Made by a program: the position numbers and the translations under genes. Under the pieces are notes generated by a model, which saw only the letters and a program-made list of their open reading frames with translations, made no database searches and was not told the DNA's origin. From Psammoneis japonica (lineage: Eukaryota), in assembly GCA_008632985.1 (NCBI GenBank), contig QPGO01000110.1, forward strand, positions 62,001-126,000: a stretch of DNA of 64,000 nt. The letters are read 5' to 3'. Shown here piece after piece: positions 8,235 through 64,000 of this stretch; the stretch's first letter is position 1, and each line of letters starts with the position of its first letter.

Positions 8235-8403
8235 TGACAGACATCCGAGATGGGGAGTGCACTCCCTTGTGTCGGACAGACTGGCACAGACAGCATGGAG
8301 AGATCCGATGATCTCTCCTTTGCTCACTTTCTTTCTCATCTAGTGCACGATTGTCATCTGTCCTAGACATCCGTTAGATTGTCCCGATGCCGCTAGTCCG
8401 CAA
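8235..8403 (+). repeat. 5' LTR of Copia element 1
   Basis: Direct repeat of 15148-15320; begins TGACAG, ends CCGCAA. Confidence 0.95.
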
Positions 8404-8413
8404 GGTTGTGAGC
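8404..8413 (+). other. Primer-binding site (half-tRNA-iMet type), mutated
   Basis: GGTTGTGAGC directly after the LTR; one TA->TG change from GGTTATGAGC, the complement of the tRNA-iMet anticodon arm GCTCATAACC. Confidence 0.7.
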
Positions 8414-8843
8414 AGCAGTGTGCTGTTCCTCTTCTTCTGTGCTCCTCTGCTGCAATGCCCGTTGTGTGGTTTGGCGACTTTTTCTTCGTTGAAATCGTCA
8501 TCATTGTCACAGCCATTTTTTCACCTCTCGATTTGTGATCAAACGACCACCGCAGAACACATGCCAGAGCTCTGCGCAGGAATTTAATTTTTTTCCCGCG
8601 CAACCATGGTGAACAAAAATCAAAATGCCGTCGATTTGACCAAGATCAAGTCGATGCTGGTTGCATTCAACCCCCAGCATGGCTTGCCAGATGCCCATCA
8701 TTGCCTGAACATCCTTTGTTCCGACGAAGACACCTGCTCCTGAAGAACTTCTGGATGGATTTACTCCTCAAGGCCTCAAGAGCGATGCCACCACTGCTCT
8801 CCGTCACAAGATTGTTCATGACCTCATCATCCCCAAGGCTGCC

Positions 8844-11800: not shown

Positions 11801-14800
11801 TTTGACGTGCCAATCCTGTCCTTGACATGTGCCCTGCGTGTGTTCAAGCCAAGCAAGTCAAGACTCCCGCTGGTCCAAACATGACTTGGAAGGCAACCCA
11901 GCCATGCCAAGGTCTCACTGTAGATTTTGCTTTTGCTGGCCAGACTTCCAAGAATGAAGACCGCAAGGTTGATTGTCTTGGATGCAATGGTGAAACGTGT
12001 TGGATTGCTGTCTATGATCATCACACGCGGATGCTCCATGGAGCAGCGAGGGTTTCCAAAGCCAGTCCCCTCAAGTGGCTTTGCCGATTCTTGGATCGAC
12101 ATTCACCAAATTGTTGTGACAAATGTGTGTTTGTGGACCAAGGTGGGGAATCATGCAAAAACCCCAAAGTTCGTGACCTCTTTGAACGCGAATTCCAGCA
12201 TGACATCTGTCCTTCTGGCACTGGTGCATCCAACCAATGTGGACCTGTTGAACGCTCACATTTGACTGTTGAAAACGCGATTCGTGCAATTTTAATTGGT
12301 GCCAACCTTCCGATTCGATTCTGGCCCTGTGCATTTTGCCATTGCCTCCGCATCAAGAATGCTGCTCCTGCAAAAGATCAAGATGCGGCACCCATCACTC
12401 TTGCCACCGGAAAGGTCGAAGATTTTACTGCTCTGAAGACTTTCGGATGTCGAGCATGGTCCAAACGGTCCACTGCTTGTTCTGCCACCTTCCGGACCAA
12501 TTCCAAGAAGGGCACATTCCTTGGTCACCTTCCAAACACCCTCAAGAATGTCATGTGGTGGGATCCTGAGACTGACAAAGTCAAGACGGCCAAGCATGTG
12601 TGCTGCAATGAGGGCATGAATGACCTGTTTTTGGATCAACTCCCTCCCAATGCCATCCATTTGCAGTGTGTGGAAAATGGTCAGCCTTTTCCAGCTGAAA
12701 CACAGGACACCACCGTTCCTGTGTTCACGTCTTCGTTGAATCCTTTTGCTGCGACTGTCACATGTGCCATGAAACGTCCTCCAAAGGACCCCACTTGTGG
12801 TTTTGGATTTTCCCAGTGTGCGCTGATGGACCGTGTCTGTGTGTCGGAAATCAAGCAGCACAGTCCTGCGGCTTCCTTGTTTTCTTCCCTCCGTGCTGCC
12901 CGCAACAAGATTGTGGGTGCATGCGTTGTCTCTGTCAACAAGCGTGAAGTCGTTGCTCCATTGGATGCTGAAGAGGCCTCATTTCAGGTCTTCCATGATG
13001 AAATCCCAACTTTCGAGATTGCTTTTGCGCCGGAACGACGATTGGATTCTTGCACCCTTGACAAGGCATTTGAGGAAGCAGAGTCATTTGCACCTGACTC
13101 CATGGAGGACGACTCCCATGTTCCCGAACTCACTTTGGAAGATGTGCGATCTGTTGCGGCTCTTCTCCATCCTGATGATGATTTTTTGGATGAGGCCATC
13201 CCTGCGGATGTCTTCTGTGCACATCTCAATGCGATTGGCTCCCGCTCTCTCACTCCGGAGGAAGCTGCTCTTGACCGCCTCACCCGTGCCAAGCTTCATA
13301 AACTTGACACATGGCCTGAATGGGAAGAAGGCAAACAGCATCAATTGGATCAATTTTGTGCCCTTGGCATGTGTGGTCCTCCACAGCCATGTCCCCCTGG
13401 TGCGAACGTCATGCGTCCGCATTGGGATCACATGGTGAAGCCGGATGGACAACGTCGTTCTCGGCAATGTGGTGATGGCTCCAAGTCGGCAATGCCGGCC
13501 TTGCACAAGTTGACTTCCACCTGTTTGTTGTGTGTGGAACGCTCTGTCGAAAAGATGTTTTTTGCTCTCAGCGCGGCTGTGTTGCATCATGTCTTTGGTG
13601 GTGATGCCTGGGATGCCTGCGCTCATTCTCCTGGTCCTTCCCAGCAGGTTTTTGTTGCTGTTGATGATGCATGTGCCACCTGGTGTGAAAAGAGATTTGG
13701 CAAGACAGTGCCCCACCATTGTGTTCTTCCGCTCAAGCATGCTCTTCAAGGTCATCCTGAGGCTGGTGTCCTCTGGGAAAAGCGCATCAATTCGATTCTC
13801 ACAGGTGCGAAACTTCTTTTCCACAATGCTGCTCACGACAAGTGCATCTGTTCCGGTGAATGTGATGGTGTCAAGGTCCTTCTCCTTTGTCAGGTCGATG
13901 ACTTTGCTCTTGCTTGTCCTTCTGAAAGGATTGCAAAAGAGATCTACGACCATGTTGGCAAGGCTCTCCAGATGGAGAATGAGGATGCTCCTCCCTTTAA
14001 GCATTTGGGCTTGGTTGCTGAATTCAATGGTGTTGATGTCATCCAAAATGACGATTCAATTGCTGTCAACATTGCCAGTTGCCTTGACCGTGTTTTCAAG
14101 ACACATGGTTGGGATGCTCCTGCTGCGCATGAGTCTGATTCTGATTTCAAGGCTGCACCTGTTCCGGTTGATTGCACTCCTGATCTGCACGCCACTGAAG
14201 GTCCTGAAGAGGGCACACCTGAGTGTGACACTCTCGCTGAGTCCCAGAGATTCTCTTGCCATTCTGTTTTGGGTGAGTTGGTCTTTGCCTGCTCTTGTTG
14301 TCACTTGGACATTGGTCATCCTGTTGTCACCTTGTCCAAGTTTTCCAAGGCCCCGGCTGAGCTTCATTGTGATTCACTCAAGCATGTGGCCAAGCATTTG
14401 TGGTGCACCAAACATTGGGGGCTGACGTGTGTGAAGTCTGGGCGCGATCCCAGTCTGCCTCCTTGCGATTTCAAATGGCTTGAGGATGACCCATCTCTCC
14501 TGGACTTTCCTTGTGCTGAAGACTTTTTCCAACTTCTTGGTTTCATTGATGCGGCACATGCCAATGAACTGTGGCGTCGCCGTTCTGCTGCTGGACATGC
14601 GCGTGTCCTCCTTGCTGGTGCTGCAATTGACTGTCGATGCCGCGCGCAAATGATTGCGCTGCCAGTTCCACGGAAGCTGAGTTTCTCGCGGCTGTTGCTG
14701 GTGTGAAACAGACCCTGTGCCTCCGCATGGTTCTGGAAGAACTGGGCTTTCCCCAGCGTGATCCTGCTCCCTTGCACATTGACAACTCCTCTGCTGTCCA

Positions 14801-15005
14801 GATGATCAACAACAAGGTGCCTGCGGAGCGATCCCGCCACGTTGACATTCAACATTTTGCTGTCCAAGACTGGCGTGACGCAGGCAAGATTGTCACTCGA
14901 CACATCCCGGGTGTCATCAACCCTGCTGATGCACTGACCAAGGCTGTGGGTTGGGTGCTCCATTCCCGCCATGCTGCCTGCCGTTTGATGGGACATTGCC
15001 GTTGA
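8844..15005 (+). pseudogene. Copia gag-pol (gag, GAG-pre-integrase, integrase, RT, RNase H), broken by stops and frameshifts
   Basis: WHQRLGHPS pre-integrase motif; integrase DFAF..DQGGE..VERSH; RT QVDDF; RNase H SSTEAEFLAA..IDNSSA..RSRHVDI..NPADALTK. Split across ORFs 8844-9707, 9708-10514, 10633-11805, 11827-14706 and 14637-15005. Confidence 0.9.
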
Positions 15006-15137
15006 TTGTTGTTGGGTTTGTTGTGGATTGAGTCTTGGGTGTGTCTCTGTTTTATTTGTTTTTTGTCTTTGCCATTCTGGTCCTCTCTTTTTATTCGGAT
15101 CGTCTCTTTCTTTCTTGTTGAGCATTGCAATGCTCAT

Positions 15138-15147
15138 CAGGGGAGGG
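15138..15147 (+). other. Polypurine tract of Copia element 1
   Basis: CAGGGGAGGG immediately upstream of the 3' LTR. Confidence 0.8.
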
Positions 15148-15320
15148 TGACAGACATCCCCGAGATGGGGAGTACACTCCCTTGTGTCGGACAGACTAGC
15201 ATAGACAGCATGGAGAGATCCGATGATCTCTCCTTTGCTCACTTTCTTTCTCATCTAGAGTACACGATTATCATCTGTCCTAGACATCCGTTAGATTGTC
15301 CCGATGCCGCTAGTCCGTAA
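15148..15320 (+). repeat. 3' LTR of Copia element 1
   Basis: Direct repeat of 8235-8403; begins TGACAG, ends CCGTAA; followed by TSD TGCGT. Confidence 0.95.
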
Positions 15321-19825: not shown

Positions 19826-20300
19826 TGCATAAGGTGAGATGAGGTGCTTGTATGATCTACTAGGGGGCCCTAAATCAGTTGCGACTCTCGCGAAGTATCG
19901 TTGTCAAACTTGAAGACGGCGCAACTCGTATGCGGTATGCAATGGCTCTCCTCCACTTAAGTAGCTCTGCAAAATGAAGAACCGACTTGAAAAGAAGCAA
20001 TGTCAGAACGACCCGTCGCAAACAGCCTTTCATACACCGGAAATGAACTGCTTATTGCAAGCGCCGAGAAATGATAGATCGATGTTCCGCGATTGTGCTG
20101 TTTGCTGTTAGCAAAGGACACAACGATTTTCCTATTTCTGAAATAAAAACGCGATAAAAGGTCAAAAAATTAGTCGTGACGTCATGCTTTATTTGATAAT
20201 CCCTTCATCTTTTGAAATTTGAATTGACAATTTTTGAAAATCCAAATCCATACCTCAACTCATCAACTCACAACTCACAACAATATAGAGTGAAAGCTCG

Positions 20301-41634: not shown

Positions 41635-41833
41635 TAGTTTTTACAGTATGTTCGTTCGTTTTTGCTGGCGTTGAATGTCTGGCCGCTGGCCGTCAGCATC
41701 GTCGTTGCGCGAATTATGCGCGCTCACTCTAGAGCACGCAGAAAAATAGCGCGGCCCATTTTTTTCTGCATCCGCCCTGCTGTTTTCATCATTGACATTG
41801 TTCTGTGTGATGCTGTTTGATGTTTGACGTTAT

Positions 41834-49064: not shown

Positions 49065-50327
49065 CTATGACGACTCTTGCTTTTTGACGCGTTGAAAAAC
49101 ATGATATTGTTCAAATCCCTTGTTTCCAGGAGAAGGATTGACGGGTAACACCTGTCGTAGTATCCAACCGCCGCTTTCAAGGTAATCAAACAAGGTATCA
49201 TTTCCATTCGCACCACCTCGGCCTTCTCCAACATAAACCACGGTGTCATTCTCCTCTGCAACGCTCACATAACGTTGAATTATATCAAGTGCCATGGGAC
49301 CTGGCGGAGGATACACCAACAATAGGACCCGACCACGACAAGATGGCTGTTGAAGTGTTTGTTTGAAATCTGATATTTTTTTGACCTTGCTGTAAAAGAA
49401 GTCCTTTGCCGGCTGGGTGTGGTCGTGATAAATCTTGGTGGACAATGGTAGCTGGTCCATGTTGTCGAATGCCAGAACAATTTCAAACTGGTCATTATAC
49501 GTTCGTTGTTTTTGTCGTTGCTGCTGCTCAGTGTGGTGATCAACAATGGCTCGGGCCCACTGACCATGCCCGCTCCCAAATTCAACAATCCCTCGATTGC
49601 GCCCAAGCTCCAACAAGGAGTCAAGAATATCATTGGTCCATCCTGCACAACCATAACGTATCATAAAATTCTCTCGTTGTTGTGGCGAAACATTCTTGCC
49701 GTATGCAATACGACACATTTCTAGAAACAACGCGTTGAGTTCTTGTTGCTGACTCTCCGTAGTAGAAGTGACGGTGTTTGCTCCCTCGTGTCGTTGACGT
49801 AGTTCCATTGCCTTCTTCTGTATATTCAAAAGCTTTTTCTCGTCTCGACGACGTTCCTTCAGTTTGCGTCGAATCTTTGCATTGTCAAAGACTGCGTCAC
49901 CGGGAGTGATGACTCGAGGAATGGGCCAAGACACGACTCCGCTCCAAGCCAGAAATCGCCGTATCTGTCCGACGGGTGGAGGCGTTTGACTTGAACTGAC
50001 GGTATTGTTGTGACCGCTCATTTCCTGAGACACACATCTAGCCACCGATGGTCTCATCCACTGGAATACGAACGCCTGATACTCAGCACTATTACGCATT
50101 TGTTGGTGGCAGTGTCTGCTCGATGCGTCAGAAGAAAAAAGCTGACTGCTATGAACCCGATCCTCTCTTGTGCGAAAGTAGTACAAGGACGAAGCCATGG
50201 CAGTCACCAGTGCACCACCAAGTATATGCCGCTGTGGCAGGCGGTGGCAAAGAGATGTCATGACAAGCGCGTCAGATGTAGAGTGATGTTGCGGTGTTAA
50301 TAATTGCGGCTCATGGCTCATGGCCAT
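49065..50327 (-). CDS. Hypothetical SAM-methyltransferase-fold protein
   Basis: 420 aa open ORF with VEFGSGHGQWA, LLLVYPPP and VYVGEGRGG. Confidence 0.65.
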   Translation of the reverse strand: MAMSHEPQLLTPQHHSTSDALVMTSLCHRLPQRHILGGALVTAMASSLYYFRTREDRVHSSQLFSSDASSRHCHQQMRNSAEYQAFVFQWMRPSVARCVSQEMSGHNNTVSSSQTPPPVGQIRRFLAWSGVVSWPIPRVITPGDAVFDNAKIRRKLKERRRDEKKLLNIQKKAMELRQRHEGANTVTSTTESQQQELNALFLEMCRIAYGKNVSPQQRENFMIRYGCAGWTNDILDSLLELGRNRGIVEFGSGHGQWARAIVDHHTEQQQRQKQRTYNDQFEIVLAFDNMDQLPLSTKIYHDHTQPAKDFFYSKVKKISDFKQTLQQPSCRGRVLLLVYPPPGPMALDIIQRYVSVAEENDTVVYVGEGRGGANGNDTLFDYLESGGWILRQVLPVNPSPGNKGFEQYHVFQRVKKQESS

Positions 50328-50676
50328 CCTGCGAATGGCGAAAAGAATGAGGTTATCACTCAGTCAGTGTGGGTGTGCCACGTCCGTATGCGGTTTTCTT
50401 CTCACGCACGGTTAGTTGTCTTCTGACACAACTCACAGCACGTGTGCCACTGTAAAAAGGCATGTAAAGAAACACCTCACAGGAAAGCGCATTTCCGACA
50501 GCGCACACAGTTCAATCAAATGATGATTACAGCACATGTAGTCGGCTAAAGCTAAACACAGACCATTTCAGGAAAGACATGTGTTGACTCTGCTGCTCTT
50601 GTCCTGATGCTGTGTTGACTTGCGGCCGACTTGTGCGCATTTTCAGATGACACAAACTGGACATCAACACAGGTGG

Positions 50677-50953
50677 TGACAGAAAATGAAGGCAAATGGC
50701 AAGAATTCAAACAACAACTCCTTACTGCTGTCTAAACAGCAGATGAGTCTCCGCTCAGAGACCGTCACAGGAGCCGAAAGACGTGCAAGTCGGTGTGATC
50801 GGGCTGCTGTCATTGTTCTTGTGAGCCTTGTGGCTCGAAAGCAAACTGCATCGCGCGTGAACGTTGCAGAACTAAAGCACACAAAACTGTGCACGGTAAA
50901 CTAAACAGCGCACGACACTTCGCGCGCACCTGGATCCTGTTCAAATCCTGTCA
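50677..50953 (-). repeat. 3' LTR of Copia element 2
   Basis: TGACAGAAAAT...ATCCTGTCA, repeat of 57510-57785; adjacent purine tract AAACTGGGGAG on the minus strand. Confidence 0.95.
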
Positions 50954-53900
50954 CTCCCCAGTTTGCTTGAGGAGCCACAGAAACAGATTCGACTTCGGAT
51001 GGAATGAAGTTCCAGAACATGAGGGGGCGGAGAAGGTCCCAGATTTGGGAGCAACCCCAATGCTTGCTGAGAATGTCAGCAGGGTTGCGGGAGCCTTCGA
51101 TGAAGTGGAACTCAAGGCAACCAGAGGCAATTGCCTCACGCACACGGTGGAACGACAGTGCGGTGTGTCGCTTGTGTAACTTGGAGTGCGGGATGGTGGC
51201 ACTGTCTACAACCGACTTGTTGTCACCGAACATGTAACTGACATTACGGATCGGGACGCCAAGGCAGCGCAGGGTGATGCGCAGGTCGACAATCTGCTCA
51301 ACACAATTCCTTGCGGCAACAAATTCAGATCCGCAGGTTGCAGTCTCCACGGTGGCTTGTTTCTTGGAGAACCAATCAGCCGGGAATTTGTTGAGGAAGT
51401 GGAGCATTCCCATGACAGAGCGTCCGGTGAGCATGCAATGGTGCAAGTTTGCATCGACGTAGTGGGTGGCAGTGACGAACTTGCCAAGGGGCGGTGGAGC
51501 GTCCTTCGGGATCATCTCTTCTGCTTCACCATACACGGAATGCATCCATTCATAGGCCGGAGCAGGGAGATCCGAATGGTCGGGCTCTTCCGTGCGAACG
51601 CGGAGAGCACCGTGTCGCATCTTGGAGAGGCACCCACAGACGCGTTTGGCACGATCCAAGTGGCCTTGACGGGGCGCAGCTCGGAAGCTGGAGAGTGACA
51701 TGACGGCTGTGGCAATGTCAATTCGACCAAGGGACACTGCCCATTGGAGTGAACCAACAAGAGACTGGAACTTGTGAATGCCATCGGGTCCCAGCAGTTC
51801 GGAAGTGTCCAGTTCGGGGTGGTCACCCTTCTCTAGAGGTGACAGGGCGTTGGTGGCAGGTTTCTCCCCAAACAGTCGGGCATGGCTGTCGACCATGCGC
51901 TCGATGTACTTGCGCGGAGACAGGCACAAGGTTCCGTCGGGTTCCCGGGAAAAGTCGCAACCCAGATGGAACTCAATGGGTCCCGCACCCTTGAGCTTGA
52001 ACTTGTGCTTTTCCGTGAGAGTGTCGACGAAAGATTGAGGGTCCTTCATGGCAATGGCGAGGTCATCCACATAAACGGCAATGCATTCACAGTGGTCGCC
52101 GTTCCTGCGCATCCAAATGTCGGGTTCGGCGCGGCAGGGGAAGAAGCCTTCAGCTCGCAGGCAGTCGGCGAAGCGCTCGTGCCAGCGGAGACCGGAGCTG
52201 CGCAGTCCATGCAGTGCCTTGTGGATGACAAGGATGTGCCCTTCGAGTTTGCCAAACTCGGGTCCAGCTACAATGTAAAGCTTCTCCTTGGTGGTGGCTT
52301 CAAGGCAGGCATTGCCAATGTCGGTGGCCCATGTCTCCAACTCATTGAGTTCGGCCAGGAAAATCATCAGCCGAAGGCCACGGAGGGAGACCACTCCGGA
52401 GCAGACACTGTCGACAGGCATGTCCGTGAGGTGCCCGTCGGCTGCGAGTCGTGCCTTGTGGCGACCGTCGTGTTTCACGTCGCACACCAGGTGCACTCGG
52501 ATCTTCTTGTGTCCCGCAGGAGGAGTGGAAGACTTGAAGGGCCCGCAGTCATGGAAGACTTCGCATTCGTCGAGTTGGTCCATCTCGAGATTAGTTGCGT
52601 CTCCCCACTTGCGGTTGCCGTTGCGTTCGTCTAGTGACATGGCGTGTTTGTAGTTCCGGGGAACTTCGTGTCCATGCTTGTAGCGAGGTGCAGTGCGGAA
52701 GGAGCGAAGCTTGGCTTGGTTGGCCATGCGAAACAGCTTCTTTTGGCGCCTCGCGATGGTGCGGAACCGCTTCCAGCCATCCGTGTCGAGGAGTCCGTTC
52801 TCTCGTGCATAGATGGCACAGGTGACGGGGTCGTCCTTGGCGATGATGGCAAGAGGCTCGGACGTGATCTCCCCACTTTCCCATTCAAGCATGATGTTGT
52901 AGCTGGAGCCTTTCCAGGTTGGGTCGTGAGGCTTCAGAGGTCCTTCGTGCGACACGATGCGTCGAAATTTCCAAACAGTGGTGTCTTCGTCTTCTTGCTC
53001 AATGTGATTCATGATGTCATTGCAGGCAAGGACTTCCTTGCATTCGTCATTGTTGACAGAGCAGACGAACTTAGTGAGCTCGGGATTGCCGTTCACTTTC
53101 CATTCGTGGTCTTCGACGGCCTTGACGATGCGAGCTCTGTGGCATTGTCCGTCCTCTTGTGGCTGCATGAGGAAGGTACGTCCAATGATGTCTTGCGGAT
53201 CGAAAACTGGCATCTTGGGTGTCCTGATCTCCCCATCAGGAGAGTCGACGGGGTTGTCATCATGGCGAGATTTGATGATGGGTTCAGGTGGCTCCCCATC
53301 AGGAGGATCAAGACGCAGGTTTCGAATGGCAGGATCGGGTGTAGCGGAGCGGACGTTGGACCGGTGGAGGATCTTCTGAGTCTCGTCAGATAGAATCTTG
53401 AAGGTCATCTGGTGGCCGATGTGCTCAGCAATGCCAACGAAGCGTCCACGCAACTCACGGGATTCGGACGGCCAATCGGAGTCATCGAGGTGGAAGCACA
53501 CGGGTTCCCACCAGTGAAAGCGAAGCAATGGGCTGATGTCCGGGGTGGAGCCAGTGAGAGTCTCGAGGGGCGTGCGCCAGTGGAGACGTGGGGACGCTGC
53601 ATGGTTGAGTGTGAAGCACACGCACATGAGCGCCAGCAGCCATGTGTGGGCGGGCGAACCAAAACGATCCATGACAGTGTTCGCCATGCGCTTCACGGTC
53701 TGGTGTCGACGTTCGGCAAAGTTTTGGTGTTGCTGGTGAGGCTCACTTTGCCAGCTAGAGATGAAGAGGGTGCGCAGGACACCGAGCACTTTGTTGCTGA
53801 TCTCAACTTGAGCACGGTCGCTAATGAGTTTGGATGGAGCACCACGTTCACGGATCTGATCCTCGAGTGTGTTGACAAACTCTTTGTCCGTCTCAGTGCC

Positions 53901-56600
53901 GTAGACGTCAGTGACGGTAGACTCGGTGCCAACAAACAGTTGGGCGCTGGTGCAACCAGAGTCGACGGCCGGGGTGTCGGCATGAACGGTGTCAGTGGCG
54001 ATGGGCTCGTTGCGGCGGTGCACATTAAGGGCGGGGTTGGGTGATTTGCAGGCCTTGCGAAGGTGTGTACCGGCGGGCATGCGGGCGCACTGCGTGGTGC
54101 AGTCAAAAGTACGACGGACCGCATCGGCAGGTAGGAAGCCAAAGCAAGGCCGAAGAGACTCGAAGGGGGGGTCCTTGGGCTGTACAGTGCGCTCCGGAGG
54201 TGGAACGTCATCGCCCTTGGGGTCAATCGCATGCAGATGACACTCGTAGAACACGTCGTCGTTCGGAATGAGGTGATCATCGAGGGCGGACGCGTGATCG
54301 GCAGACAAGGAAGCGGACAAGATGGTCTCGTTGACAACGACACGATGACGGCAGTTGCCGCACTCGCCAAACAGGTTGGCAGTGGGATCGTCCTGCAGGT
54401 CAGAGATCGCGTCGCACCACTGGTCGTCGTCAGTGACGGAGTGATCGAGGACGGAAGGGTCCCATGTGTCATCACTGGTGAGGATGACATGGGGCAGGGT
54501 GTCCCATTCGGCATCAGTGTAAGGTCGCATGGCAACATGAGGCAGGCCAGCCTTGATGTCAATGGGGATGACACAGCCATCAGGAGTGGCAATGCGTTGC
54601 AAGCCGTTGGGCACCTTGACAGAGCGATCGTTGACATCCTGTTTGCACCATTCGAGCTGGCCGCAGGAATGGATGGTCTTGCCCTTGCCCGTGCATGCGC
54701 ACTGATGGAGGATGGCGATGACGGGACCACGCTGGGTCTCAACAACGGCACCAGTGGTGACAATGGGGATGTCCACCAATTGATGATCGTCAATGCCCTG
54801 AACGTCGACTTGGCGAGAGGTGCGTGCAATGACGCGAACGTCGTCGCCAGCAATGCCGCCGTTGGCCCCACGATCGACTAGAGCGCCAGTGCGTGTGGAG
54901 CGATGAGCAGAGGCAGAGCAAATGACATTGTGGTTGTCAACGCGGCGGCAAGTGCGGCCGTTGAGTTCTGTGTCATCTGCAGAAGCTGGCGGGGTAGAGG
55001 AAGCGGCGGATGGCCCCGGTCGACTGGCATTGGGGGCTTGGTCAGGAGACAACAGACGTTGCAGATCACCGGGTGGCAGCGGCTTGCGCTTGGTGAGGTG
55101 CGCCAGGATGGGATTGTCCGAAGTGGCGTCCACATGTGGAGCGGAGTCACCAGAGTCAGCAGGAGTCGTGTTGGACAAGTTGACATCGCCGTCACTCCCA
55201 AGGCATTGGTCGTGAAGGTTGGCCGCAACAGACTCATGGCAGTTGCTGGCTCGCGGGTTGCGGGGAGGTGGACGAGAATGCTCAAGGATGATCGCCTTGG
55301 AGGAATCGGGCAACGAATCCCAGAGCCGTTGGTGGTCGGGAGGGAGACGTCTCCATTGGACACCGGCGAGGCTGGGACCGCGGGTGTGGGCAGCATTGGC
55401 CTGAAGGACGTCAACGTCGCTGTCAATGTCGTAGAACACATCGTCGGACGGTTCCTCGGAGCAGACGTCATGTGCGTGCATGGCGCGTCGGGGAGCTTGA
55501 GGTGTCGTCTTGGGTTGAAACGTGCTGTCGCACTGAGCTGCCGCGGAGAGGAGCAAGCCACAGCATTGATCGCATGTGAGGCTCTTGCCACTCTGCGCAC
55601 GATGCTGATCAGCTTGGCTCTTGACAGCACGGAGTTCCTCGACAGGGTGCACGGCATTCTCGAGCATGACGCGCTTCTGTCCTTCAGAGAAGTGGTCACT
55701 GGCCGGGATGAGTGCCTCGCACTTGCGCAACTGATCTTGCCAATGAAGGATGAAGCCGTGGGTCGGACCTTTCCAAGTGCCATCACCGAGACGCGCGGTG
55801 GTGAGGTGCGTGAGCAGGGTGGAGGACTCGATGGATGCGCGGGTGGAGGCAAGCGCGCACTCAGACAAGGAGCGGCAGACGGTCTGTGCGTCAGAAGACC
55901 CCACATTTTCGCGAATGAGAGCCTTGCCCTTGTCGGTGAGAAGGATGCGTTCGAAGACGGCGAACATGTGCTTTTGCTGTTCAGCAAAGAGCAGTTTGTC
56001 TTCGGGGCTGGTCGGTTTGTACGACGAGTCTAGAATGCACTCGACGTCTTGGGCACGGGCTTGTGCCACAAGTGAGGTGTGCCAAGTGTGCCACTGCTTG
56101 TCGGATTTGAGAGCCGTGAAAGCGGTGGGATCACGCTTGATGCCTTGCTTGAAGTCCCGCACCGGGTCGCGTGCCTTGGTCGGGTTGGTGACATGTGGAG
56201 GTGCAAGGGGTGAGCTGCCGATGGACACAGAAGACATGTGGTCGGGGCTGAGGCGGCAGGCAAGGAACTCGTCATGCGCGAACAAAGAGGAGTCGTTGGC
56301 AACATCAAGACCTTTGTGTGCTTTGACAATGCACAGACTGACCAGTGCTGCCAACATGTTCTTACAACCACGGGGCAAAGGGATCACATTGGTGCCGTTG
56401 TCGTGCTCAAGCGAGTCGATTTGGGACGGCATGAACGTGAACAGTTCCTGATGCGAGTCCGTGCCGTCTTGGGCCAAAGCCAAACGAAGAGGACTCCCAG
56501 CACCTTGGGCAAGCACGGTTCCAACCACGTGCTCGAAACCATCGGTTTGTTGCTGACGAGTGAGAACCATGGCAGACAAAAGTGGTGTCAGGACAATCAA
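50901..56600 (-). CDS. Copia gag-pol polyprotein (protease, integrase, chromo-like domain, RT, RNase H), open but heavily missense-mutated
   Basis: Protease LVDRGANGG; integrase TDTV..SDRA..NFAERR; RT YVDD; RNase H YVDAN..SEFVAA..GDNKSV..NPADILSK. Confidence 0.93.
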   Translation of the reverse strand: MIVLTPLLSAMVLTRQQQTDGFEHVVGTVLAQGAGSPLRLALAQDGTDSHQELFTFMPSQIDSLEHDNGTNVIPLPRGCKNMLAALVSLCIVKAHKGLDVANDSSLFAHDEFLACRLSPDHMSSVSIGSSPLAPPHVTNPTKARDPVRDFKQGIKRDPTAFTALKSDKQWHTWHTSLVAQARAQDVECILDSSYKPTSPEDKLLFAEQQKHMFAVFERILLTDKGKALIRENVGSSDAQTVCRSLSECALASTRASIESSTLLTHLTTARLGDGTWKGPTHGFILHWQDQLRKCEALIPASDHFSEGQKRVMLENAVHPVEELRAVKSQADQHRAQSGKSLTCDQCCGLLLSAAAQCDSTFQPKTTPQAPRRAMHAHDVCSEEPSDDVFYDIDSDVDVLQANAAHTRGPSLAGVQWRRLPPDHQRLWDSLPDSSKAIILEHSRPPPRNPRASNCHESVAANLHDQCLGSDGDVNLSNTTPADSGDSAPHVDATSDNPILAHLTKRKPLPPGDLQRLLSPDQAPNASRPGPSAASSTPPASADDTELNGRTCRRVDNHNVICSASAHRSTRTGALVDRGANGGIAGDDVRVIARTSRQVDVQGIDDHQLVDIPIVTTGAVVETQRGPVIAILHQCACTGKGKTIHSCGQLEWCKQDVNDRSVKVPNGLQRIATPDGCVIPIDIKAGLPHVAMRPYTDAEWDTLPHVILTSDDTWDPSVLDHSVTDDDQWCDAISDLQDDPTANLFGECGNCRHRVVVNETILSASLSADHASALDDHLIPNDDVFYECHLHAIDPKGDDVPPPERTVQPKDPPFESLRPCFGFLPADAVRRTFDCTTQCARMPAGTHLRKACKSPNPALNVHRRNEPIATDTVHADTPAVDSGCTSAQLFVGTESTVTDVYGTETDKEFVNTLEDQIRERGAPSKLISDRAQVEISNKVLGVLRTLFISSWQSEPHQQHQNFAERRHQTVKRMANTVMDRFGSPAHTWLLALMCVCFTLNHAASPRLHWRTPLETLTGSTPDISPLLRFHWWEPVCFHLDDSDWPSESRELRGRFVGIAEHIGHQMTFKILSDETQKILHRSNVRSATPDPAIRNLRLDPPDGEPPEPIIKSRHDDNPVDSPDGEIRTPKMPVFDPQDIIGRTFLMQPQEDGQCHRARIVKAVEDHEWKVNGNPELTKFVCSVNNDECKEVLACNDIMNHIEQEDEDTTVWKFRRIVSHEGPLKPHDPTWKGSSYNIMLEWESGEITSEPLAIIAKDDPVTCAIYARENGLLDTDGWKRFRTIARRQKKLFRMANQAKLRSFRTAPRYKHGHEVPRNYKHAMSLDERNGNRKWGDATNLEMDQLDECEVFHDCGPFKSSTPPAGHKKIRVHLVCDVKHDGRHKARLAADGHLTDMPVDSVCSGVVSLRGLRLMIFLAELNELETWATDIGNACLEATTKEKLYIVAGPEFGKLEGHILVIHKALHGLRSSGLRWHERFADCLRAEGFFPCRAEPDIWMRRNGDHCECIAVYVDDLAIAMKDPQSFVDTLTEKHKFKLKGAGPIEFHLGCDFSREPDGTLCLSPRKYIERMVDSHARLFGEKPATNALSPLEKGDHPELDTSELLGPDGIHKFQSLVGSLQWAVSLGRIDIATAVMSLSSFRAAPRQGHLDRAKRVCGCLSKMRHGALRVRTEEPDHSDLPAPAYEWMHSVYGEAEEMIPKDAPPPLGKFVTATHYVDANLHHCMLTGRSVMGMLHFLNKFPADWFSKKQATVETATCGSEFVAARNCVEQIVDLRITLRCLGVPIRNVSYMFGDNKSVVDSATIPHSKLHKRHTALSFHRVREAIASGCLEFHFIEGSRNPADILSKHWGCSQIWDLLRPLMFWNFIPSEVESVSVAPQANWGVTGFEQDPGAREVSCAV

Positions 56601-57498
56601 CTCTGGTTGGGAAGAGAAGGTAGACTCGAAACTTGGGTGAGAATGGACTTGACTTGAAACAGACTTGACTTGAAATCTTGAACTGTCTTAAAATCAGAAG
56701 TCGCCGGGCTTTGTCATCCCGTTCGTTGTCAAGTGCTAAACTTCCCATCCGGTCCGTAGAGTTGTGCCGGCACGTCCGAACCCGCAGCTGGCGGCGCTTT
56801 GGGTTGCTTGCGAGCGGAGCAGCGGGTTGTAAACCCCTGCAGGCAAGCTGACTGGAGGTGGACAAGACCCCCGAACCGTTCTCATTTTATGTCGGTTGGA
56901 TTTCCCGATCAGGCTGGCCAGTTGACGCAGGCGTCAGGCGCTGTGGACGAACGAACAAACGTGGGAAAGCACCCTCGCCCCAACGCAGGCTGCAATCACG
57001 GCTGCTTGCTCTCACAGTCGTCCTCGTAGACCTAGCAGAACTGTAGAGCACCAGTAGTCCGGGGTAGATCAGGTACAATGGACTCGGTGTGCTTGTAGAG
57101 TGGTGGCAAAACCGCAGTCCGAAGAGTGGGTGCAGGTTCTTGGCCGTGAAGATATGTATATATACACATGTCTTCAGCGACGAAGATCCTTGAATATGTA
57201 GGGTTCTTGACCGTTAACCGATGAATAGGTATATCAAGGGATGAGGATCAAGGATAGACTTGGATATGACCGTTGAATGTATGTCTTCAGCGATCAAAGG
57301 TAGTATAATCAATCCAGATATCCAGCGGTAAGGAGACTTGACGGTGACGTTAACTTCCTGCCGATGCCCTGGTATTGAATGCGCGTAGACTTGCCGATGT
57401 ATGTAGGATATATACGGAGGTCCACGTAGAATTGAAATAGCGTCGTTGGTAAATCAACGACGACGATGGCGGTTGCTCAATGGGTTGACAATGAGCAA

Positions 57499-57509
57499 GA
57501 CTGTTAATC
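57499..57509 (-). other. Candidate primer-binding site complementary to a tRNA-Asn(GUU) anticodon arm
   Basis: Minus strand reads GATTAACAGTC directly after the 5' LTR, the complement of GACTGTTAATC. Confidence 0.55.
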
Positions 57510-57785
57510 TGACAGAAAATGAAGGCAAATGGCAAGAATTCAAACAATAACTCCTTACTGCTGTCTAAATAGCAGATGAGTCTCCGCTCAGAGACCGTTG
57601 CAGGAGCCGAAAGACGTGCAAGTCGGTACAATCGGGTTGCTGTTGTTATTCTTGTGAGCCTTGTGGCTCGAAAGCAAACTACATCGCGCGTGAACGCGCG
57701 GAACTAAAGCACACAAAACTGTGCACGGTAAACTAAACAGCGCGCGATACTTCGCGCGCACCCAAATCCTGTTCAAATCCTGTCA
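57510..57785 (-). repeat. 5' LTR of Copia element 2
   Basis: Repeat of 50677-50953; bordered by TSD GGTGG. Confidence 0.95.
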
Positions 57786-60700
57786 GGTGGCAAAATCAAA
57801 GACCAAGACAAGGCGATCATCTTCATTGGAGGGATGGGAAGATGGCATGATCAGAAAAGTGGTTGCGCATGCCATTGGCAAAGGCATCATCCCATGCATG
57901 TGCCGTGCCAGCCTTGGGTGCAACAAGAAGGAGGTTTTGTTTGCAGCGGGTGAGAATGCCGAAGCACCTCTGTCCAAAAGGCAAAGGGCAAACGCGGCCT
58001 TGTTGTTAAGATCCAGATGAAAATCTGCAGGAGGAGTTTCTCCTGACAAGACAAAGACCTTGACACAAGCTCAAGGACCCACATCCATTTCAAGATCAGG
58101 CCAGGTGTCCTGCACACGACCACGAATCTTGGAGAGAACCTCGGCATCGACATCATCAGTTTTCATGGCGCAATCTGATGAACCAACTGGGCCATTGCAC
58201 ACTTTGTCCTTGGAGATTTTGAAGCACACTTCACCTTCAATGGGGTGGCTCTTGATGTGCTCATCTTCCATCTTGCACCAGGTGCCAAAAGCCCCGCGCT
58301 CGAAACTGCACTTGTGCACAATTTGGTGAAGCGCTGCAAGCTTGTTGCCCCATCAAGAAAGCCATCAAAAGACCAGATGCCCGGGTTGGAAGCAATGAGC
58401 TTTCCTCCAACTGGCTTGGTCCATGGCTTGTCAAAATCCATCTCATCAGCAACAACAGCTGGAGCATCCTTGGCATTGCCTTGCAGCTCCTTGCCGTTGA
58501 AGCACTCATTTTGCAACTCTGAGGCTTCCTCCAACTGGCTTGGTCCATGGCTTGTCAAAATCCATCTCATCAGCAACAACAGCTGGAGCATCCTTGACAT
58601 TGCCTTGCAGCTCCTTGCTGTTGAAGCACTTGTTTTGTAACTCTGAGGCTGCAATGCACAACGCAGATGTTGTCATGGCATCACCATCAACACAACATCC
58701 AACTTTGTTGAGAGAATGACAGTTGACTTTGGTGCAAAAATGAGCTCCAATGATGACAAAGCCAGGTTCCATCCATCCACTTGTCTGACAATTTTGCGTG
58801 TGAGTGCACAAACTGCTCTGACTGACAGGCAGGGCCAACAAAACACACACTGGAGCTTGTGCATGGAATCCTGCAACTGCACAGCTCCATTTCTGTGACA
58901 AGCAGAAATGACCTGTTCCAGCTCCAAGTGTTGCTCAGAGGTGTGCAATCCACCGATGGCACATTTTTGTGTTTGGTGCAATGGGTTCCTTTGACTTTGA
59001 TCATTTCAAAAATCAAAGGGCACAATGCTTGTGTTTTTTGTGTGCACTCACCTTTTGATTTTTGAAATGATCAAAATTGAAGGAGCTGCTCATGATCACT
59101 CATTTTTTCACTTTTTTGCTGCAACTCAACTGACATCCAAACACGCCCTGTTTCTCCAGACACCAGACATTTAATTTCACACTGAGTGCACCAAAAAGAC
59201 ATGTCCTCTTGACTTTTCATCTGTCTCATCCACCAGCCCCCTCATTGCCCATTTTTCACTCAAATCTCCAATGCATCATTGTGAAGAAGAGGAAGGAAGC
59301 TGAAGTTGGCCATCAACACAAGTCAGCAACTGGCAGCACCAAAAACAAATGATCCAATTGCAAAATTCCAAGACAATCTGTCCCCTCCCAAATTGATGCC
59401 AAAGGAGCAACAGCCACTCCCTCCAACCTCACCTGTGACAATTCCACCATCACTCCCTCCACACTTCTCTTGCCCACCAAACTTCTGTCAACCTGAGCCC
59501 CTCCACAGAATTCCTGGCTCATCATGAAAGGTTGTCCTTTCCAAGACAACACATCCCCTCCCAATTCCATGCAGCCACTCCCTCCAACCTCACCTCTGAC
59601 AATGCTGCTGTCACTCCCTCCATTGTGCCCACCAACCAAATTTGCCCCACTTCAATCCTCATGCCTTTGGTGCAGCCCACAAAGATCCCCAACAAGCACT
59701 TTGTTGTTCAGAGATCAAAGCAAAACAAGGAGTCTTGTCTTGCACTGCCGCTCAAGAGCAATGAGGGGCTGCCTTCATGTGCACTTTGCATCTTGTTTCT
59801 CACAATGTGGAGCAGTGAAAAACAGACCAAAATCAGATCAGAATCTCTAAAAAGGAGCCCATCTTCAATTGACATAAAATGCAAGAGTCTCCAGTGCTGC
59901 ATGTTTTCTGGCACAGCTGGCAACAGATTTTTGGTGCTGTGCTGCCAAAGGAAACACGGGATGCAAAAATTTTGGCCACATTCTTTCATGGCTGGTGGCA
60001 GAGTTGCAGAGTGTCTCTCTGCCAAGACCCGCAATGTTTTGACCATTCCTTGGTTGACTGGCAACAGACTTGCAGCATTCATGCCAAGACCCACAAGTGT
60101 TTGGTTGACAGCATTCCAGGATGACTGGTTGCACAGAGACAGAGTGTTGCAGTGTGACTGCCAAGAGAAAGCAGGAAAACAGCCACCAGCATGGTGTTCC
60201 TGAGCGCAGCTCAATTGGGTGGGAAGGTCTGCCATTGTCAAACAAGCCTTGTCCTGCCTGACAACTGCATGCTTTGTTGCAACAATGGCCATCTGTGCTT
60301 TCCACACCTGGTTCCAAAGACCCTGTTTGCTGTCATCATGTGATGACAGACAGCTGCTGGAGACATTGTCTCTGAGTCCAAATAAAAAAAAGACTGGCCG
60401 CTGTGCACAGTGGGACTGTTGCTTGCTTTGGCCAACATTGCTCTGTTGCTGTGACTTGGGAAGCTGATTGTGGACCCAGCAACAGACCCAGCAGCTCTCA
60501 AATCAGCTGCATCATGTTGAGCTCTCATGAAAGCAGGTGGTGTCATCAAAACAGAGACACCCAGCCAGGCACTTTTGGTTTGTGACTTGCAGCGTGCATG
60601 GAGTTTGGAGTTTGGGGTGTGCTTGGAAGCTGAGGCTGCAAAACATTTGTCAGAGTGGCTTGCTTTGCTGCTTCACACATTGTCACACCATGTGTTTTGG

Positions 60701-63400
60701 CCCACTGGCTGGCTGCTGCACTCACAAAGGTTGAGCTGTGCTGCCACAACAGTGGTCAAGAAGCAACCCTGTCAAGATGTGCTCAACGCTTTTGACTCAT
60801 GCCTTGGGGCATCATGCAGAGTGTGCTTGGAAGTTGAGGCTGCAGTGAATTTGCTCAAAATGACTTGTTGATGTTCCACTGGCGCTTGACACTTGGTCAC
60901 CATCAGGAGGCCCAGCGTGGTGCCCACATGGCAGCTGCGCCAAGCAACCCCTGGTTGAGCTGTGCCCAGCATGTGACTTGCTTGTGAGTTTGGGTGTGAA
61001 ATGTGCTTGGAAGCCAAGACTGTAAAAGGTTTGTCTAAAGTGGCTTGTTTCACTGCTTGACACTTGGTCACCTGGTCTTGCGTGTGCACACACACACCAG
61101 TGGCTGATGATGCACTGCTCTGTCACAATGGTGGCCAGGCAACCAGTTCTCAAGCTGTGTGGTCCAACAGTTTTTACTTGCAACTTGGGGCATGTGGAGT
61201 GTGCTGAGGAGCTGAGGCTGCAAGTGATTTGTCAGACATGGCTTGTTTTGCTGCTTGGGGCTACAAAAAACTTGTCAGAGGTGGCTTGTTGAGCTTCCGC
61301 TGCTTCTCACACATCTGGTGGCACCAGGTGTTTCTGCACATTGCTGCACTCACCACCAACAATGATGAGCTGCTGCCACAACAGCAGTCAAGCAACCCAG
61401 CTGAGCCATGCCCCAGCACTTTTTGCTTGTGACTTAAGATGTGAGAAGCTTGCTCAGAAGTTGAAACAGCAAACAATTTGTCAGAAGTGGCTTTTGTTCT
61501 GTTGCTTGACACCTGGCGCCACCAGGTTTTTCTGCACACAGTGGCTGCACTGTCACTGCAAGAGCTGTCAAGCAACCCAGCTGAGCTGTGCCCATCACTT
61601 TTCTTGTACTTTGGGACATGTGTGGAGTGTGCTTTTGAAGGCAGAGACTGAAAAAAGTGGCTTGTTTTGCCTCTTGACACTTGGTCACCAGGTTTTTCTG
61701 CACAATCAGTGGCTGCGTTGCCACCACAACAGCCCTCAACCAACCCAGCTGAGCTGCACCCAACACTTTTTCAATTGTGACTTTTGCAACATGTGGAGTG
61801 TGCTTGGAAGCTGAGGCTGCAAAAAATGTCAGAAGTGACTTGCTTGCTGTGCTTGACACTTGGTCACCAGGTGTTTTTTTGTGCAGACAGCACAAAATGG
61901 CGGCTGCACTGCCGCCACAATGGCAGCCAAGCAACACAGCTGTGCCCAGCACTGGTTGCTTGTGACTCAGGGTGTGTTGAGCATGCTCAAAAGCTGAAGC
62001 CATGAGCAGTTTGCTGTGAGAGGTTTTTGTTTGCTGCTTGACATTTGGCACCACAGGGTGTTTCTGCACACACAGTGGCAAGAAGGCGCTGTCACCACAC
62101 TTGGCAAAAAGTGACCCGGCTGAGCCAATGTGTTCAACACTTTCAACTTGAGTTTTTAAAATTTAAGTGTTCAAAGCCTGCCTGAAAATCCAAGGAAAAA
62201 CAGCAAGTCAGAAGTGACCACTTTGGCTTCATGGTGCTTTGTTGCCAGGGTGTGTGTGCCCTGCTTGCAACTCACCTTTGAGACCCAGAATTCTTGACAA
62301 AGCAACGCAGACCCAAGTCAGTGGTGCACTGACTGCAGATGTTGGCAGTGGCCACCCATTGCACCAAATTCCCACTCCTTGCTGTTGCTGCCTTTGTCAC
62401 CCCCCACAGGGACAACTGCCCCTCCACACTTCTGGAGCTTCTTTGCAAAATCTGTGCAATGAGCTTGAGTGTGATCGTTCACTGCCTTGGAGCGCCACCG
62501 GCAGCACTGCATCTTTGTCCTCAAGCAGCATGTTTTCTCTCATCAAAGCCAGCTTTCCCATTGAGCAGACTCTTTCTGTGTGACTCTCAGCATTGGTGGC
62601 ACCAATCTGAGCTAGAGAGCAGCTTGCCATGAGAGGCAAGAACATCCAAGCTGCTTGCGCTTCTTCTCTGATGACTCCAGCTTCTTGCACAAGACACACA
62701 CGTCCAGCTTCAGCAAGTCTCCAATGTCTGAGATTAGATTTCTCCAATGGCACCTTCTCACTTGGACACTCTTCATGCCACATGACCTTCAACTGAAGCC
62801 AGCTTTTGTGACAACTTTCTTGAGCTCTCACAGAGCACACAGCCTTTTCTCTTTGTTGCACTGACCACAGGAGTTTTCTCTGCTGACTGGGCACAGCTGC
62901 TGTGGTCATGTGAAGAGTTGGTGTCAGAGCCACCAAAGATGTCATGCTCTCATGTTGAGACCACCAGCACTTGCACAAGGTGCCAAAACAATGTCCTTGT
63001 TGGCTGCTGATCAGCTGCAGCCAGTCTCAAGCTCGTGCCTTTCTGCAGCCCAGCTGCTGTGTCAGCCTCTTCTTTCTTTCACTTCTCCTCTGCTTCTTTC
63101 TTTTTTCTCTCTTCCGCACATTGGTGTGAAAAGTGGTGGCATGCCAATGGTCTTCCGGCAGAGGCTGGGGCATGTTGGCAACTGCTTGCAGGCCCAGAAC
63201 ACAAGACATGATGGCATGGCCACCGCCACAACTGGCCATCAAACTTGATTCTTCTCCCTTGTTTTGACTCAAAAACTTCTTTTGAAATTGTCATGTTCAT
63301 CAAGCTTTGAAAGACTGCCATCCATTGGATCTTGTGGTGTGCATCACTTCACTGTAAAAGACGGCAAAAGACCGCCATGGAGCAGAAATTCGCCTTCCTC
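57786..63400. other. TpA/CpG-depleted domain: decayed gene-like sequence and degenerate tandem repeats
   Basis: About 15 TpA in ~5.5 kb by manual count; 124-bp tandem duplication at 58402-58650; ~170-195 bp repeats at ~60550-62150. Confidence 0.8.
60550..62150. repeat. Degenerate tandem array, unit ~170-195 bp
   Basis: Recurring CACCAGGT(G/T)TTTCTGCACA, CAACCCAGCTGAGC and GTGCTTGGAAGCTGAGGCTGCA. Confidence 0.75.
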
Positions 63401-64000
63401 GCGAGGCACGTGCGCATGCATGATCTTGCACAGGCTCAGATATTGTGGATGGTGTGTGTGTCATCATGCCAGTGAAAATGTCTCAGTAACCTTTGACGAT
63501 TTAAGCCCCGATGTCTTTTACATTGTACGGCATGCGTTGCGATTTGTCCCCATTTTTGTTTTCAGACACGACAAGACGATGAAATGTGTTGTCGAATTTC
63601 TTCTCTACTGGCTCTTGTACTTATCATTTTGATTGAGCATGCTCGATCTATTGTCCTTCATAGTTTTACAGGCATCATTAGGGACAGGAAGGATGACGCT
63701 GAAGAGTACAGAACAAACGCGGGCACAAGTTCAAAGGGTCAGGTGGAACTCGAGAGCAAACACTTGGAGTTGTGTCGAAAGGCAAGCCATGGTCAACTAC
63801 AAGACCCTCGGTATCTATATATTGGTTTGCGGTTCACAGCAGTCGCCATACCGCGAAATGCGAAGATAACTGCCGCGAAAATCATGTTCTACGTCGACAG
63901 AGAAGCCAACCTAGAGAGTGCAAATGAGTTTGGTCACAATAGAAATGTGAGCATTACGATTACAGGAGAATACGTGGGGGACGCACCACCCTTCAGCGCG

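Follow-up and report, generated by a model that had tools for sequence, protein, structure and literature searches.

A complete copia retrotransposon of the diatom Psammoneis japonica has probably been hypermutated at TpA after insertion, with its CpG essentially intact

How can a retrotransposon protein lose most of its conserved tyrosines and still be encoded by a frame of almost 1,900 codons without a stop? The question is raised by a 64,000-nucleotide (nt) stretch of the nuclear genome of the diatom Psammoneis japonica (contig QPGO01000110.1, positions 62,001 to 126,000), referred to below as the window, whose own positions serve as coordinates throughout. The window contains a complete, recently inserted Ty1/copia long terminal repeat (LTR) retrotransposon, element 2 (50677-57785, minus strand), and a second copia element, element 1 (8235-15320, plus strand). 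Taking all observations together, we consider it likely that a transition process specific to the dinucleotide TpA (TA) mutated element 2 after its integration and left its CpG (CG) sites essentially intact.

The loss is plainest in the predicted protein. Element 2 encodes exactly 16 Tyr, where an earlier, sequence-only reading of this DNA had put the number at about 16; the median in 84 full-length relatives is 71 and the minimum 54. Cys makes up 3.0% of its residues vs. 0.9% in the same relatives (z = 12.9). Columns of an alignment with 50 relatives were taken as conserved where at least 80% of these agree; 767 columns qualify, and element 2 matches the relatives at 677 of them. The 40 conserved Tyr columns now hold 10 Tyr, 19 Cys, 8 His, 2 Phe and 1 Trp, and 27 of the 30 changes give the codons TGY or CAY; all other residue types are retained at 77–100% of their conserved columns. 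Five motifs that had been described as altered were all found, and the consensus of the relatives has a Tyr in each (DIGNAYLEA, KALYGL, TYGSEF, DSVYSGVV and HWGY).

At the DNA level, dinucleotide counts were related to the expectation from base composition (observed/expected, o/e). Positions 50954-57026 contain 45 TA where 273 are expected (o/e 0.16) and 450 CG where 492 are expected (o/e 0.91), the latter in agreement with the many CpG remarked on earlier. In 79 related, metagenome-derived loci the median TA o/e is 0.70 and the lowest value 0.31. Thirty of these loci were picked by hand for normal TA and CpG, in a non-exhaustive selection with the most TA-rich loci excluded. Relative to them, the density of TA in the open reading frame (ORF) of element 2 is 6.9 per kilobase (kb) vs. 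42.5 ± 6.6/kb and that of CG 74.8/kb vs. 60.1 ± 9.3/kb, and a gain of 28/kb in TG plus CA roughly offsets the TA deficit of 36/kb. In a purely descriptive comparison, ATAN tetranucleotides (about 9.8/kb in the relatives) are all lost from 50904-56570 and NTAT is 93% lost, the best-surviving contexts being CTAC, GTAC and CTAG; this pattern suggests that AT-flanked TA was mutated more efficiently. The surviving TA are unclustered (variance-to-mean ratio of about 1.2, computed by hand). Two of the metagenome contigs, L039:2-1972 and L054:3-1382, have the lowest TA o/e among the 79 loci (0.31 and 0.40), and 9 of the 31 Tyr positions of the nearest unmutated relative of L039 are Cys or His in that contig. 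Judged by their composition, these two may be partly hypermutated copies in other organisms.

The CpG sites of element 2 behaved differently from its TpA sites. At 59 conserved Arg columns element 2 has 57 Arg, 55 of them encoded by CGN, with no change to Cys, His, Trp, Gln or a stop in any column, so that 27 of 37 informative Tyr codons lost stand against 0 of 55 CGN Arg codons (Fisher p = 2.5e-15). The per-site rate ratio of TpA to CpG change is at least 24 as a point estimate and at least 15 as a conservative bound. When the two LTR pairs are pooled, losses come to 20 of 50 TA and 3 of 56 CpG (p = 1.4e-5), and the remaining bases, about 683 by hand calculation, carry only two substitutions. 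One locus ranks the per-site rates: TpA changes far faster than CpG, which in turn changes faster than other sites, and this ranking makes TpA loss distinguishable from methylation-driven decay. Conversely, some relatives from other hosts are poor in CpG at ordinary TA (e.g., CG o/e 0.07–0.21 at TA o/e 0.46–0.67). The proposal of the sequence-only reading that A→G change at TpA is much faster than, and separable from, deamination of methylated CpG thus stands as far as rate and separability are concerned. Its attribution of the CpG loss to 5-methylcytosine (5mC) deamination does not stand in the same way, since CpG loss is confined to TpA-depleted tracts and shared targeting is possible.

LTR retrotransposon replication gives each new copy a pair of identical LTRs, and differences between them record what happened after integration. 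Between the LTRs of element 2 there are one indel and 19 substitutions, every one of the latter a transition: 14 of TA vs. TG or CA, three of CG vs. TG or CA and two others. At four TA sites one LTR has CA and the other TG, as expected from independent changes on opposite strands of an ancestral TA. The LTR pair of element 1 has six substitutions, all of TA vs. TG or CA and all in the 5′ LTR. Over both elements 25 of 25 LTR substitutions are transitions, 20 of them of TA vs. TG or CA, three CpG-type and two other. The changes occurred in DNA, after insertion and on both strands. With polarity assigned by parsimony, the ancestral LTR of element 2 would have had 15 TA and 20 CpG, and the 3′ LTR would have lost 10 of its TA and the 5′ LTR four. 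Because the loss in the 3′ LTR (10/15) equals that of conserved Tyr (27/40), we infer that the mutations of the body are post-insertional too. The LTRs of each element are unequally mutated (10 vs. 4 of 15 TA in element 2; 6 vs. 0 of 10 in element 1), and the higher-coordinate LTR is the spared one in both, although the elements point in opposite directions. This suggests targeting that is positional and not determined by sequence, and the unequal mutation of identical LTRs argues against targeting by homology alone. By hand calculation from lengths and site counts, the raw LTR identity of element 2 is 93%, rising to 98.2% when TA-type sites are set aside and to 99.3% when CpG-type sites are set aside as well.

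Some further observations concern the strand. Changes from Tyr to Cys, i.e., A→G on the coding strand, exceed those from Tyr to His in both elements (19:8 over 50904-56570 in element 2 and 11:5 over 10603-14706 in element 1; pooled 30:13, p = 0.014). A bias of the sense strand is hinted at, as this excess is shared although the two elements occupy opposite genomic strands. The LTR events are without strand bias (5:5, 2:2 and 4:2), and no strand-coordinated runs were seen among the Tyr events in a count by hand (14 runs vs. 12.3 expected). Tetranucleotide gains point to a strand bias contrary to the Tyr counts, with more CA than TG in the coding strand; this approach was discarded because the codon usage of the family confounds it.

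Element 2 is 7109 base pairs (bp) long. Its LTRs of 277 nt (50677-50953) and 276 nt (57510-57785) have TG..CA termini and are flanked on both sides by a perfect 5-bp target duplication, GGTGG; paired LTRs with such ends and identical pentamers outside them mark a complete insertion. A stop-to-stop frame at 50901..56687 on the minus strand spans 1928 codons without stops or frameshifts. The ATG aligned with the starts of 50 relatives sits at 56570, giving an ORF of 1889 codons plus TAG; the open frame reported earlier is borne out, and its length of 1899 residues is to be replaced by this figure. The copia-type reverse transcriptase (RT) domain RVT_2 (Pfam PF07727) covers residues 1351-1562 of 1889 (E = 9.6e-25) and is the sole domain reported by Pfam, in this protein and in the unmutated relative P0001 alike. 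With its RT in the last third and alignable end to end with the 50 relatives, the protein is compatible with the copia order, in which the integrase precedes the RT. The frame ends in a TAG (50901-50903) 17 codons into the 3′ LTR, about 20 residues past the ends of the relatives, and in-frame CAA and TGG codons (50954-50975) stand at the expected position of the native stop. The native stop codon was probably erased, maybe by the TpA process itself.

The persistence of the frame follows from the type of change. A transition from TA to TG or CA consumes a TA and never generates one, so that TAA and TAG cannot be created and TGA arises only from TAA; for this reason the gag-pol frame stays open. 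Over the six frames of the ORF region, TAA and TAG together amount to 3.7 per 1000 codons vs. 16.6 in host DNA, and TGA to 18.4 vs. 19.3. The thinning of TAA and TAG in all six frames accounts for the ORFs of 383–394 codons in other frames. In simulations with 8 intact relatives, each ORF remained open in all 500 runs when 80% of its TA was converted, vs. 0–11 of 500 runs for the same number of random transitions, which introduced a mean of 3.8–7.6 new stops. Since TA-type changes spare the frame, an open frame is no evidence of youth or function, and the protein of element 2, with 27 conserved Tyr replaced, is very probably inactive. Element 2 had been called young, and so it appears to be, on account of its intact target duplication and the 99.3% LTR identity at neutral sites; the open ORF drops out as a sign of age. 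In such genomes an unbroken ORF and raw LTR identity both mislead.

The affected tract has limits. In the 5′ untranslated region (UTR) of element 2 its edge lies between 56888 and 57027, with nine TA in 56000-57026 followed by 38 in 57027-57509, and the spared 759 bp at 57027-57785 have a TA o/e of 0.93 and a CG o/e of 1.13. Within the ORF, conserved Tyr are kept at 0 of 10 positions in the N-terminal half and at 10 of 30 in the rest (p = 0.04). To the left of the element, TA is normal from 50553 downward, including a conserved gene. The ORF of this gene (49065-50363) has 182 relatives at E ≤ 0.001; among the best 120 of these, the organism-named ones are all diatoms, of the genera Minutocellus, Attheya, Seminavis, Nitzschia, Cyclotella, Thalassiosira and Stephanocyclus. 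Mutation is local to repeat DNA, and the conserved gene nearby is spared. The flanks had been described as devoid of both TpA and CpG, which applies to the right flank and to 123 bp on the left and not to the normal conserved gene farther left. As these 123 bp are free of TA and TA-free DNA starts at the edge of the 5′ LTR, the DNA that received element 2 was an older tract with its mutations already in place. Both copia insertions of the window lie inside old TA-free DNA, 123 bp (50554-50676) and 182 bp (15321-15502) from its border; with two cases, this may be chance or a preference for the edges of silenced tracts.

Element 1 extends the comparison. Its body has a TA o/e of 0.06 and a CG o/e of 0.51, intermediate in composition as the sequence-only reading had it. 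In columns conserved in at least five of six relatives, none of 20 Tyr is kept (11 are Cys and 5 His), and of 33 Arg columns 16 still have Arg, all CGN, and nine have Cys, His or Trp. CpG-type Arg loss thus affects 9 of 25 CGN codons in element 1 vs. 0 of 55 in element 2 (p = 9e-6). The frame of element 1 has a TGA at 11803-11805 where its two nearest relatives carry Arg, and it is broken by at least three frameshifts, vs. none in element 2. In the LTR pair of element 1 none of eight CpG differ and there are no substitutions other than the TA-type ones, alongside two 2-bp indels, so that CpG loss, like TA loss, is restricted to the body (P = 0.003 under equal rates in body and LTRs). Those relatives of element 1 that carry an organism name come from Nitzschia inconspicua and Fistulifera solaris. 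As a member of a different family, element 1 was rejected as an outgroup for element 2; a search for the family of element 2 elsewhere in the window gave only a 280-bp RNase H relic at 14676-14954, which is part of element 1.

On both the TA and the CpG axis, element 1 is further along than element 2. Loss of CpG to TpG or CpA stands at 0% for the body of element 2, at about 36% (CGN Arg codons) for element 1 and at about 85–90% for the old flank. Across the window, 128 segments of 500 bp trace an L-shape of TA vs. CG. Among the 58 with normal TA, none has a CG o/e below 0.3, one falls between 0.3 and 0.7 and 57 are normal, and seven of the 52 TA-depleted segments retain normal CpG. CpG has been lost only where TA is already gone, which leaves room for shared targeting or for one machinery with two activities. 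The pattern fits a slower process in the same domain, e.g., 5mC deamination in a methylated body, as well as a second activity of one machinery. The succession from element 2 through element 1 to the flanks had been read as a time series. Its older end holds: element 2 is nested in the right flank, as its intact target duplication and the TA-free DNA that begins at the LTR edge show, and the flank is accordingly the older of the two. The greater age of element 1 relative to element 2 was not substantiated, as neutral LTR substitutions (0 of about 270 sites in element 1 vs. 2 of about 413 in element 2) and indels (5 vs. 1, p = 0.22) are too few to decide.

The explanation that we prefer would proceed as follows. 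After integration, TA would be converted to TG or CA, i.e., A:T to G:C on either strand, in a tract that takes in the 3′ LTR and extends to roughly position 57000, within the 5′ UTR, removing roughly 73–84% of its TpA. Twenty-seven of the 40 conserved Tyr would thereby have become Cys or His, and the frame would persist as a 'ghost ORF'. A second, slower step from CpG to TpG or CpA, seen solely inside TpA-depleted tracts, would follow. Adenine deamination in DNA is the leading candidate for the chemistry of the TpA step, and 5mC deamination for that of the CpG step. It is quite possible, if short of probable, that diatoms run a two-stage, tract-limited defence by DNA editing, in which a TpA editor is followed by CpG erosion in the same tracts and ghost ORFs are left behind. 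The editor would act at a time when the neutral sites of the LTRs still agree to about 99%, and independently of CpG decay; per site, it would outpace change at other sites more than 100-fold and CpG decay at least 15–24-fold. If this is true, transposons would end as long ghost ORFs with few stops and many Cys and His in all six frames, which would fool gene finders, and ages drawn from ORF integrity or raw LTR identity would be misjudged. TpA-specific hypermutation as such has a precedent in mutation-accumulation lines of the alga Bigelowiella natans, where, according to the available text of a preprint, it strikes giant-virus and virophage DNA that has integrated into the genome (Mettrop et al., bioRxiv 10.64898/2026.01.13.699255).

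Two alternatives concern how TpA and CpG loss relate to each other and to time. Elements 1 and 2 and the flanks may differ in exposure, through chromatin state or the number of bursts, and not in age, a reading that we hold to be possible but doubtful. It agrees with the lack of a clock that orders the two elements, with the uneven intensity inside element 2 itself (in the retention of Tyr along the ORF and in the losses of the two LTRs) and with the restriction of hypermutation to a subset of the lines in the available text of the B. natans preprint. It sits less well with the right flank, which predates element 2 by nesting, with frameshifts that occur in element 1 only, and with the L-shaped path of the 500-bp segments, along which TA goes first and CG later as a shared time axis predicts. 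Rather unlikely, in our judgment, is a single machinery with two activities: in place of slow spontaneous 5mC deamination, the editor targeted to the tract would itself change CpG too, though less strongly, e.g., as a deaminase of both A and C or as an editor recruited along with one. TA-normal segments with strong CpG loss would be absent under such an arrangement, as they are (0 of 58), and the CpG loss of element 1 is tract-limited (9 of 25 Arg in the body vs. eight unchanged CpG per LTR); moreover, the B. natans preprint, in its available text, refers to reports of DNA editing at both A and C by ADAT2 enzymes. Nevertheless, the contexts differ (A after T, C before G), element 2 combines heavy TA loss with CpG loss at 0 of 55 codons, and relatives from other hosts lose CpG without losing TA. 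Methylation of diatom transposons at CpG by DNMT5a, as described in the available text of PMC9998398, would by itself confine CpG decay to the bodies of transposons.

Other alternatives address the TpA change itself. If an ADAR-like activity had edited A to I in the transcript before reverse transcription, the copy would have arrived mutated. ADAR enzymes prefer a 5′ U, and the prevalence of Tyr to Cys over Tyr to His in both elements amounts to the excess of A→G on the sense strand that such editing would give. However, editing of RNA before reverse transcription is excluded by LTRs that differ at TA sites (14 TA-type differences, with opposite-strand outcomes at four sites) together with the eight changes from Tyr to His, which are T→C on the sense strand and impossible from editing of sense RNA; the distal 5′ UTR, part of the transcript, is also spared. 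We regard this origin as hardly credible. Very improbable, too, is an artefact or a native composition, through codon bias of the family or base-calling errors at modified bases. Modified bases can produce systematic consensus errors in some long-read assemblies. Even so, the lowest TA o/e of any relative is about twice that of element 2, conserved Tyr have given way specifically to Cys and His, element 2 itself keeps normal TA over 759 bp, and the same signature was measured as true mutation in another alga, B. natans, by the available preprint text. Lastly, the thymine of TpA might be modified enzymatically and then mispair. Because TpA is its own reverse complement, a thymine lesion would give the same outcome of CA or TG, each event being readable as A→G or as T→C on the opposite strand. 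Dinoflagellates may have a modified thymine preferentially at TpA, but a literature search gave no supporting paper. The locus itself offers no evidence for such a lesion, and the sole experimental report, in its available text, favours adenine deamination, itself as a proposal; we consider the lesion improbable.

Several points weigh against our preferred explanation, a TpA-specific process acting after integration. At 0.58, the GC content of the ORF region of element 2 is above that of all 79 relatives (maximum 0.55), and TA loss covers only about 3.6 GC points, which implies either a GC-rich ancestor or additional A:T to G:C changes outside TA. The three CpG-type LTR differences (3 of 20 sites) disagree with the 0 of 55 in the body (p = 0.017). 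The assumed polarity places all three in the 3′ LTR of element 2, and the mismatch would mean either faster CpG decay in LTRs or reversed polarity. That polarity was assigned by parsimony, and body sites are not individually datable to the time after insertion. The unequal LTRs and the ends of the tract are left unaccounted for by every explanation offered.

Tentative rates can be derived from the two neutral LTR differences of element 2. With the B. natans baseline of 3.5e-10 per site per generation, as given in the available preprint text (bioRxiv 10.64898/2026.01.13.699255), the insertion might be some millions of generations old, an order of magnitude drawn from two events and a borrowed rate. 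The time-averaged TA loss would then be near 1e-7 per site per generation. This value would lie below the 6-9e-7 per site per generation reported for active hypermutation in the same source, as episodic activity would give.

The coordinates of the elements and their surroundings are collected in Table 1.

Table 1. Features of elements 1 and 2 and of the adjoining DNA, in window coordinates
Feature	Positions	Strand	Remarks
Target-site duplication of element 2, left copy (GGTGG)	50672..50676	.	Equals the 5 bases after the high-coordinate LTR
3′ LTR of element 2, 277 nt	50677..50953	-	In mutated tract; 10/15 inferred TA lost
gag-pol ORF of element 2, 1889 codons + TAG	50901..56570	-	Open frame; start by alignment
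RVT_2 domain of element 2	51885..52520	-	Residues 1351-1562; coordinates converted by hand
Internal tract of element 2, presumed hypermutated	50954..57026	.	TA o/e 0.16, CG o/e 0.91, GC 0.576
Distal 5′ UTR of element 2, spared	57027..57509	-	38 TA in 483 bp
5′ LTR of element 2, 276 nt, lightly mutated	57510..57785	-	4/15 inferred TA lost; CpG-type changes 0
Target-site duplication of element 2, right copy (GGTGG)	57786..57790	.	Matches left copy
Remnant of old tract left of element 2, 123 bp	50554..50676	.	0 TA, 3 CG, 17 TG, 13 CA
Older repeat DNA without TA and CpG	57791..63500	.	58001-62000: TA o/e 0.04-0.06, CG o/e 0.11-0.16
Conserved diatom gene, 432-codon ORF	49065..50363	-	314 bp from 3′ LTR; normal TA and CpG
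Element 1, second copia element, different family	8235..15320	+	LTRs 8235-8403 and 15148-15320 (169 and 173 nt)
Target duplication of element 1 (TGCGT)	8230-8234 and 15321-15325	.	Flanks both LTRs

Other features of the window were noted in passing. The old flank without TA and CpG contains two tandem 124-nt units of 94% identity at 58396-58643. Near element 1, a 1.5-kb island with normal TA and CpG (15501-17000) is followed by a tract free of TA and CpG at 17001-19000. A 604-codon ORF at 41828-43642 (plus strand), in TA-normal DNA, encodes SNF2 and Helicase_C domains. Most of the protein-atlas clusters closest to it are viral (Uroviricota, Nucleocytoviricota), with arthropod clusters among them too, and it may be a virus-derived helicase gene. 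An intact sulfotransferase ORF at 20289-21308 (plus strand; Sulfotransfer_1, E = 4e-46), likewise TA-normal, looks like an ordinary host gene.

In the literature searched, which did not extend to most subscription journals or to bioRxiv supplements, we found no description of TpA hypermutation in diatoms. The founding paper on the CoDi elements (PMC2806351) and a 2025 preprint on diatom transposons (10.1101/2025.10.24.684338) do not mention hypermutation in their available text. If our reading is right, an LTR retrotransposon of a diatom extends TpA hypermutation to a second major lineage and to ordinary transposons. Any model of targeting must then explain identical LTRs that are unequally mutated and a tract edge within the 5′ UTR. 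The dependence of such a defence on cytosine methylation becomes directly testable.

Among known systems, repeat-induced point mutation (RIP) of fungi changes C:G to T:A. It acts mainly on CpA, and new TpA and stop codons are the result. The present case resembles RIP in Neurospora and other fungi as a tract-like transition hypermutation that follows insertion, affects both strands and disables transposon DNA, but its direction is the opposite: A:T changes to G:C at TpA, stops are removed, the TA o/e falls to 0.16 and the GC content stands at 0.58. APOBEC3 and ADAR enzymes of animals edit cDNA or RNA during replication, with changes on one strand and both LTRs alike. The likeness to element 2 lies in clustered transitions that cripple retroelements, left by deaminase-type editing in animals and presumably here too; here, in contrast, the changes follow integration, affect both strands and leave the LTRs unlike. 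Decay of methylated CpG is comparable in the change of CpG to TpG or CpA in element 1 and the old flanks, but in element 2 it has yet to reach the body (0 of 55), and it cannot account for TpA loss. According to the available text of PMC9998398, transposons of Phaeodactylum receive CpG methylation via DNMT5a, and diatom DNMT4 enzymes, related to the RIP enzyme RID, are without assigned function.

The closest likeness is to B. natans, as described in the available text of the preprint. There, as here, change is nearly exclusively A→G or T→C at TpA, giving TpG and CpA, strikes foreign DNA locally and passes over host genes, and lowers TpA as CpA and TpG rise. The host in that work is a chlorarachniophyte and the target viral, whereas here the host is a diatom, i.e., a stramenopile, and the target an LTR retrotransposon. 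The depletion is also deeper, with a TA o/e from 0.16 down to 0.01 compared with 0.45 in the region of nucleocytoplasmic large DNA virus (NCLDV) origin, and CpG loss follows in the same tracts, whereas neither 'CpG' nor 'diatom' occurs in the available preprint text. Rates were measured in cultured lines there; here, the process is known from its traces in the genome. As the agent in B. natans, the preprint puts forward an ADAT2-like candidate enzyme. Overall, the signature in Psammoneis matches the TpA hypermutation of B. natans, which, as far as that text goes, was previously described in this one 2026 preprint on one rhizarian alga.

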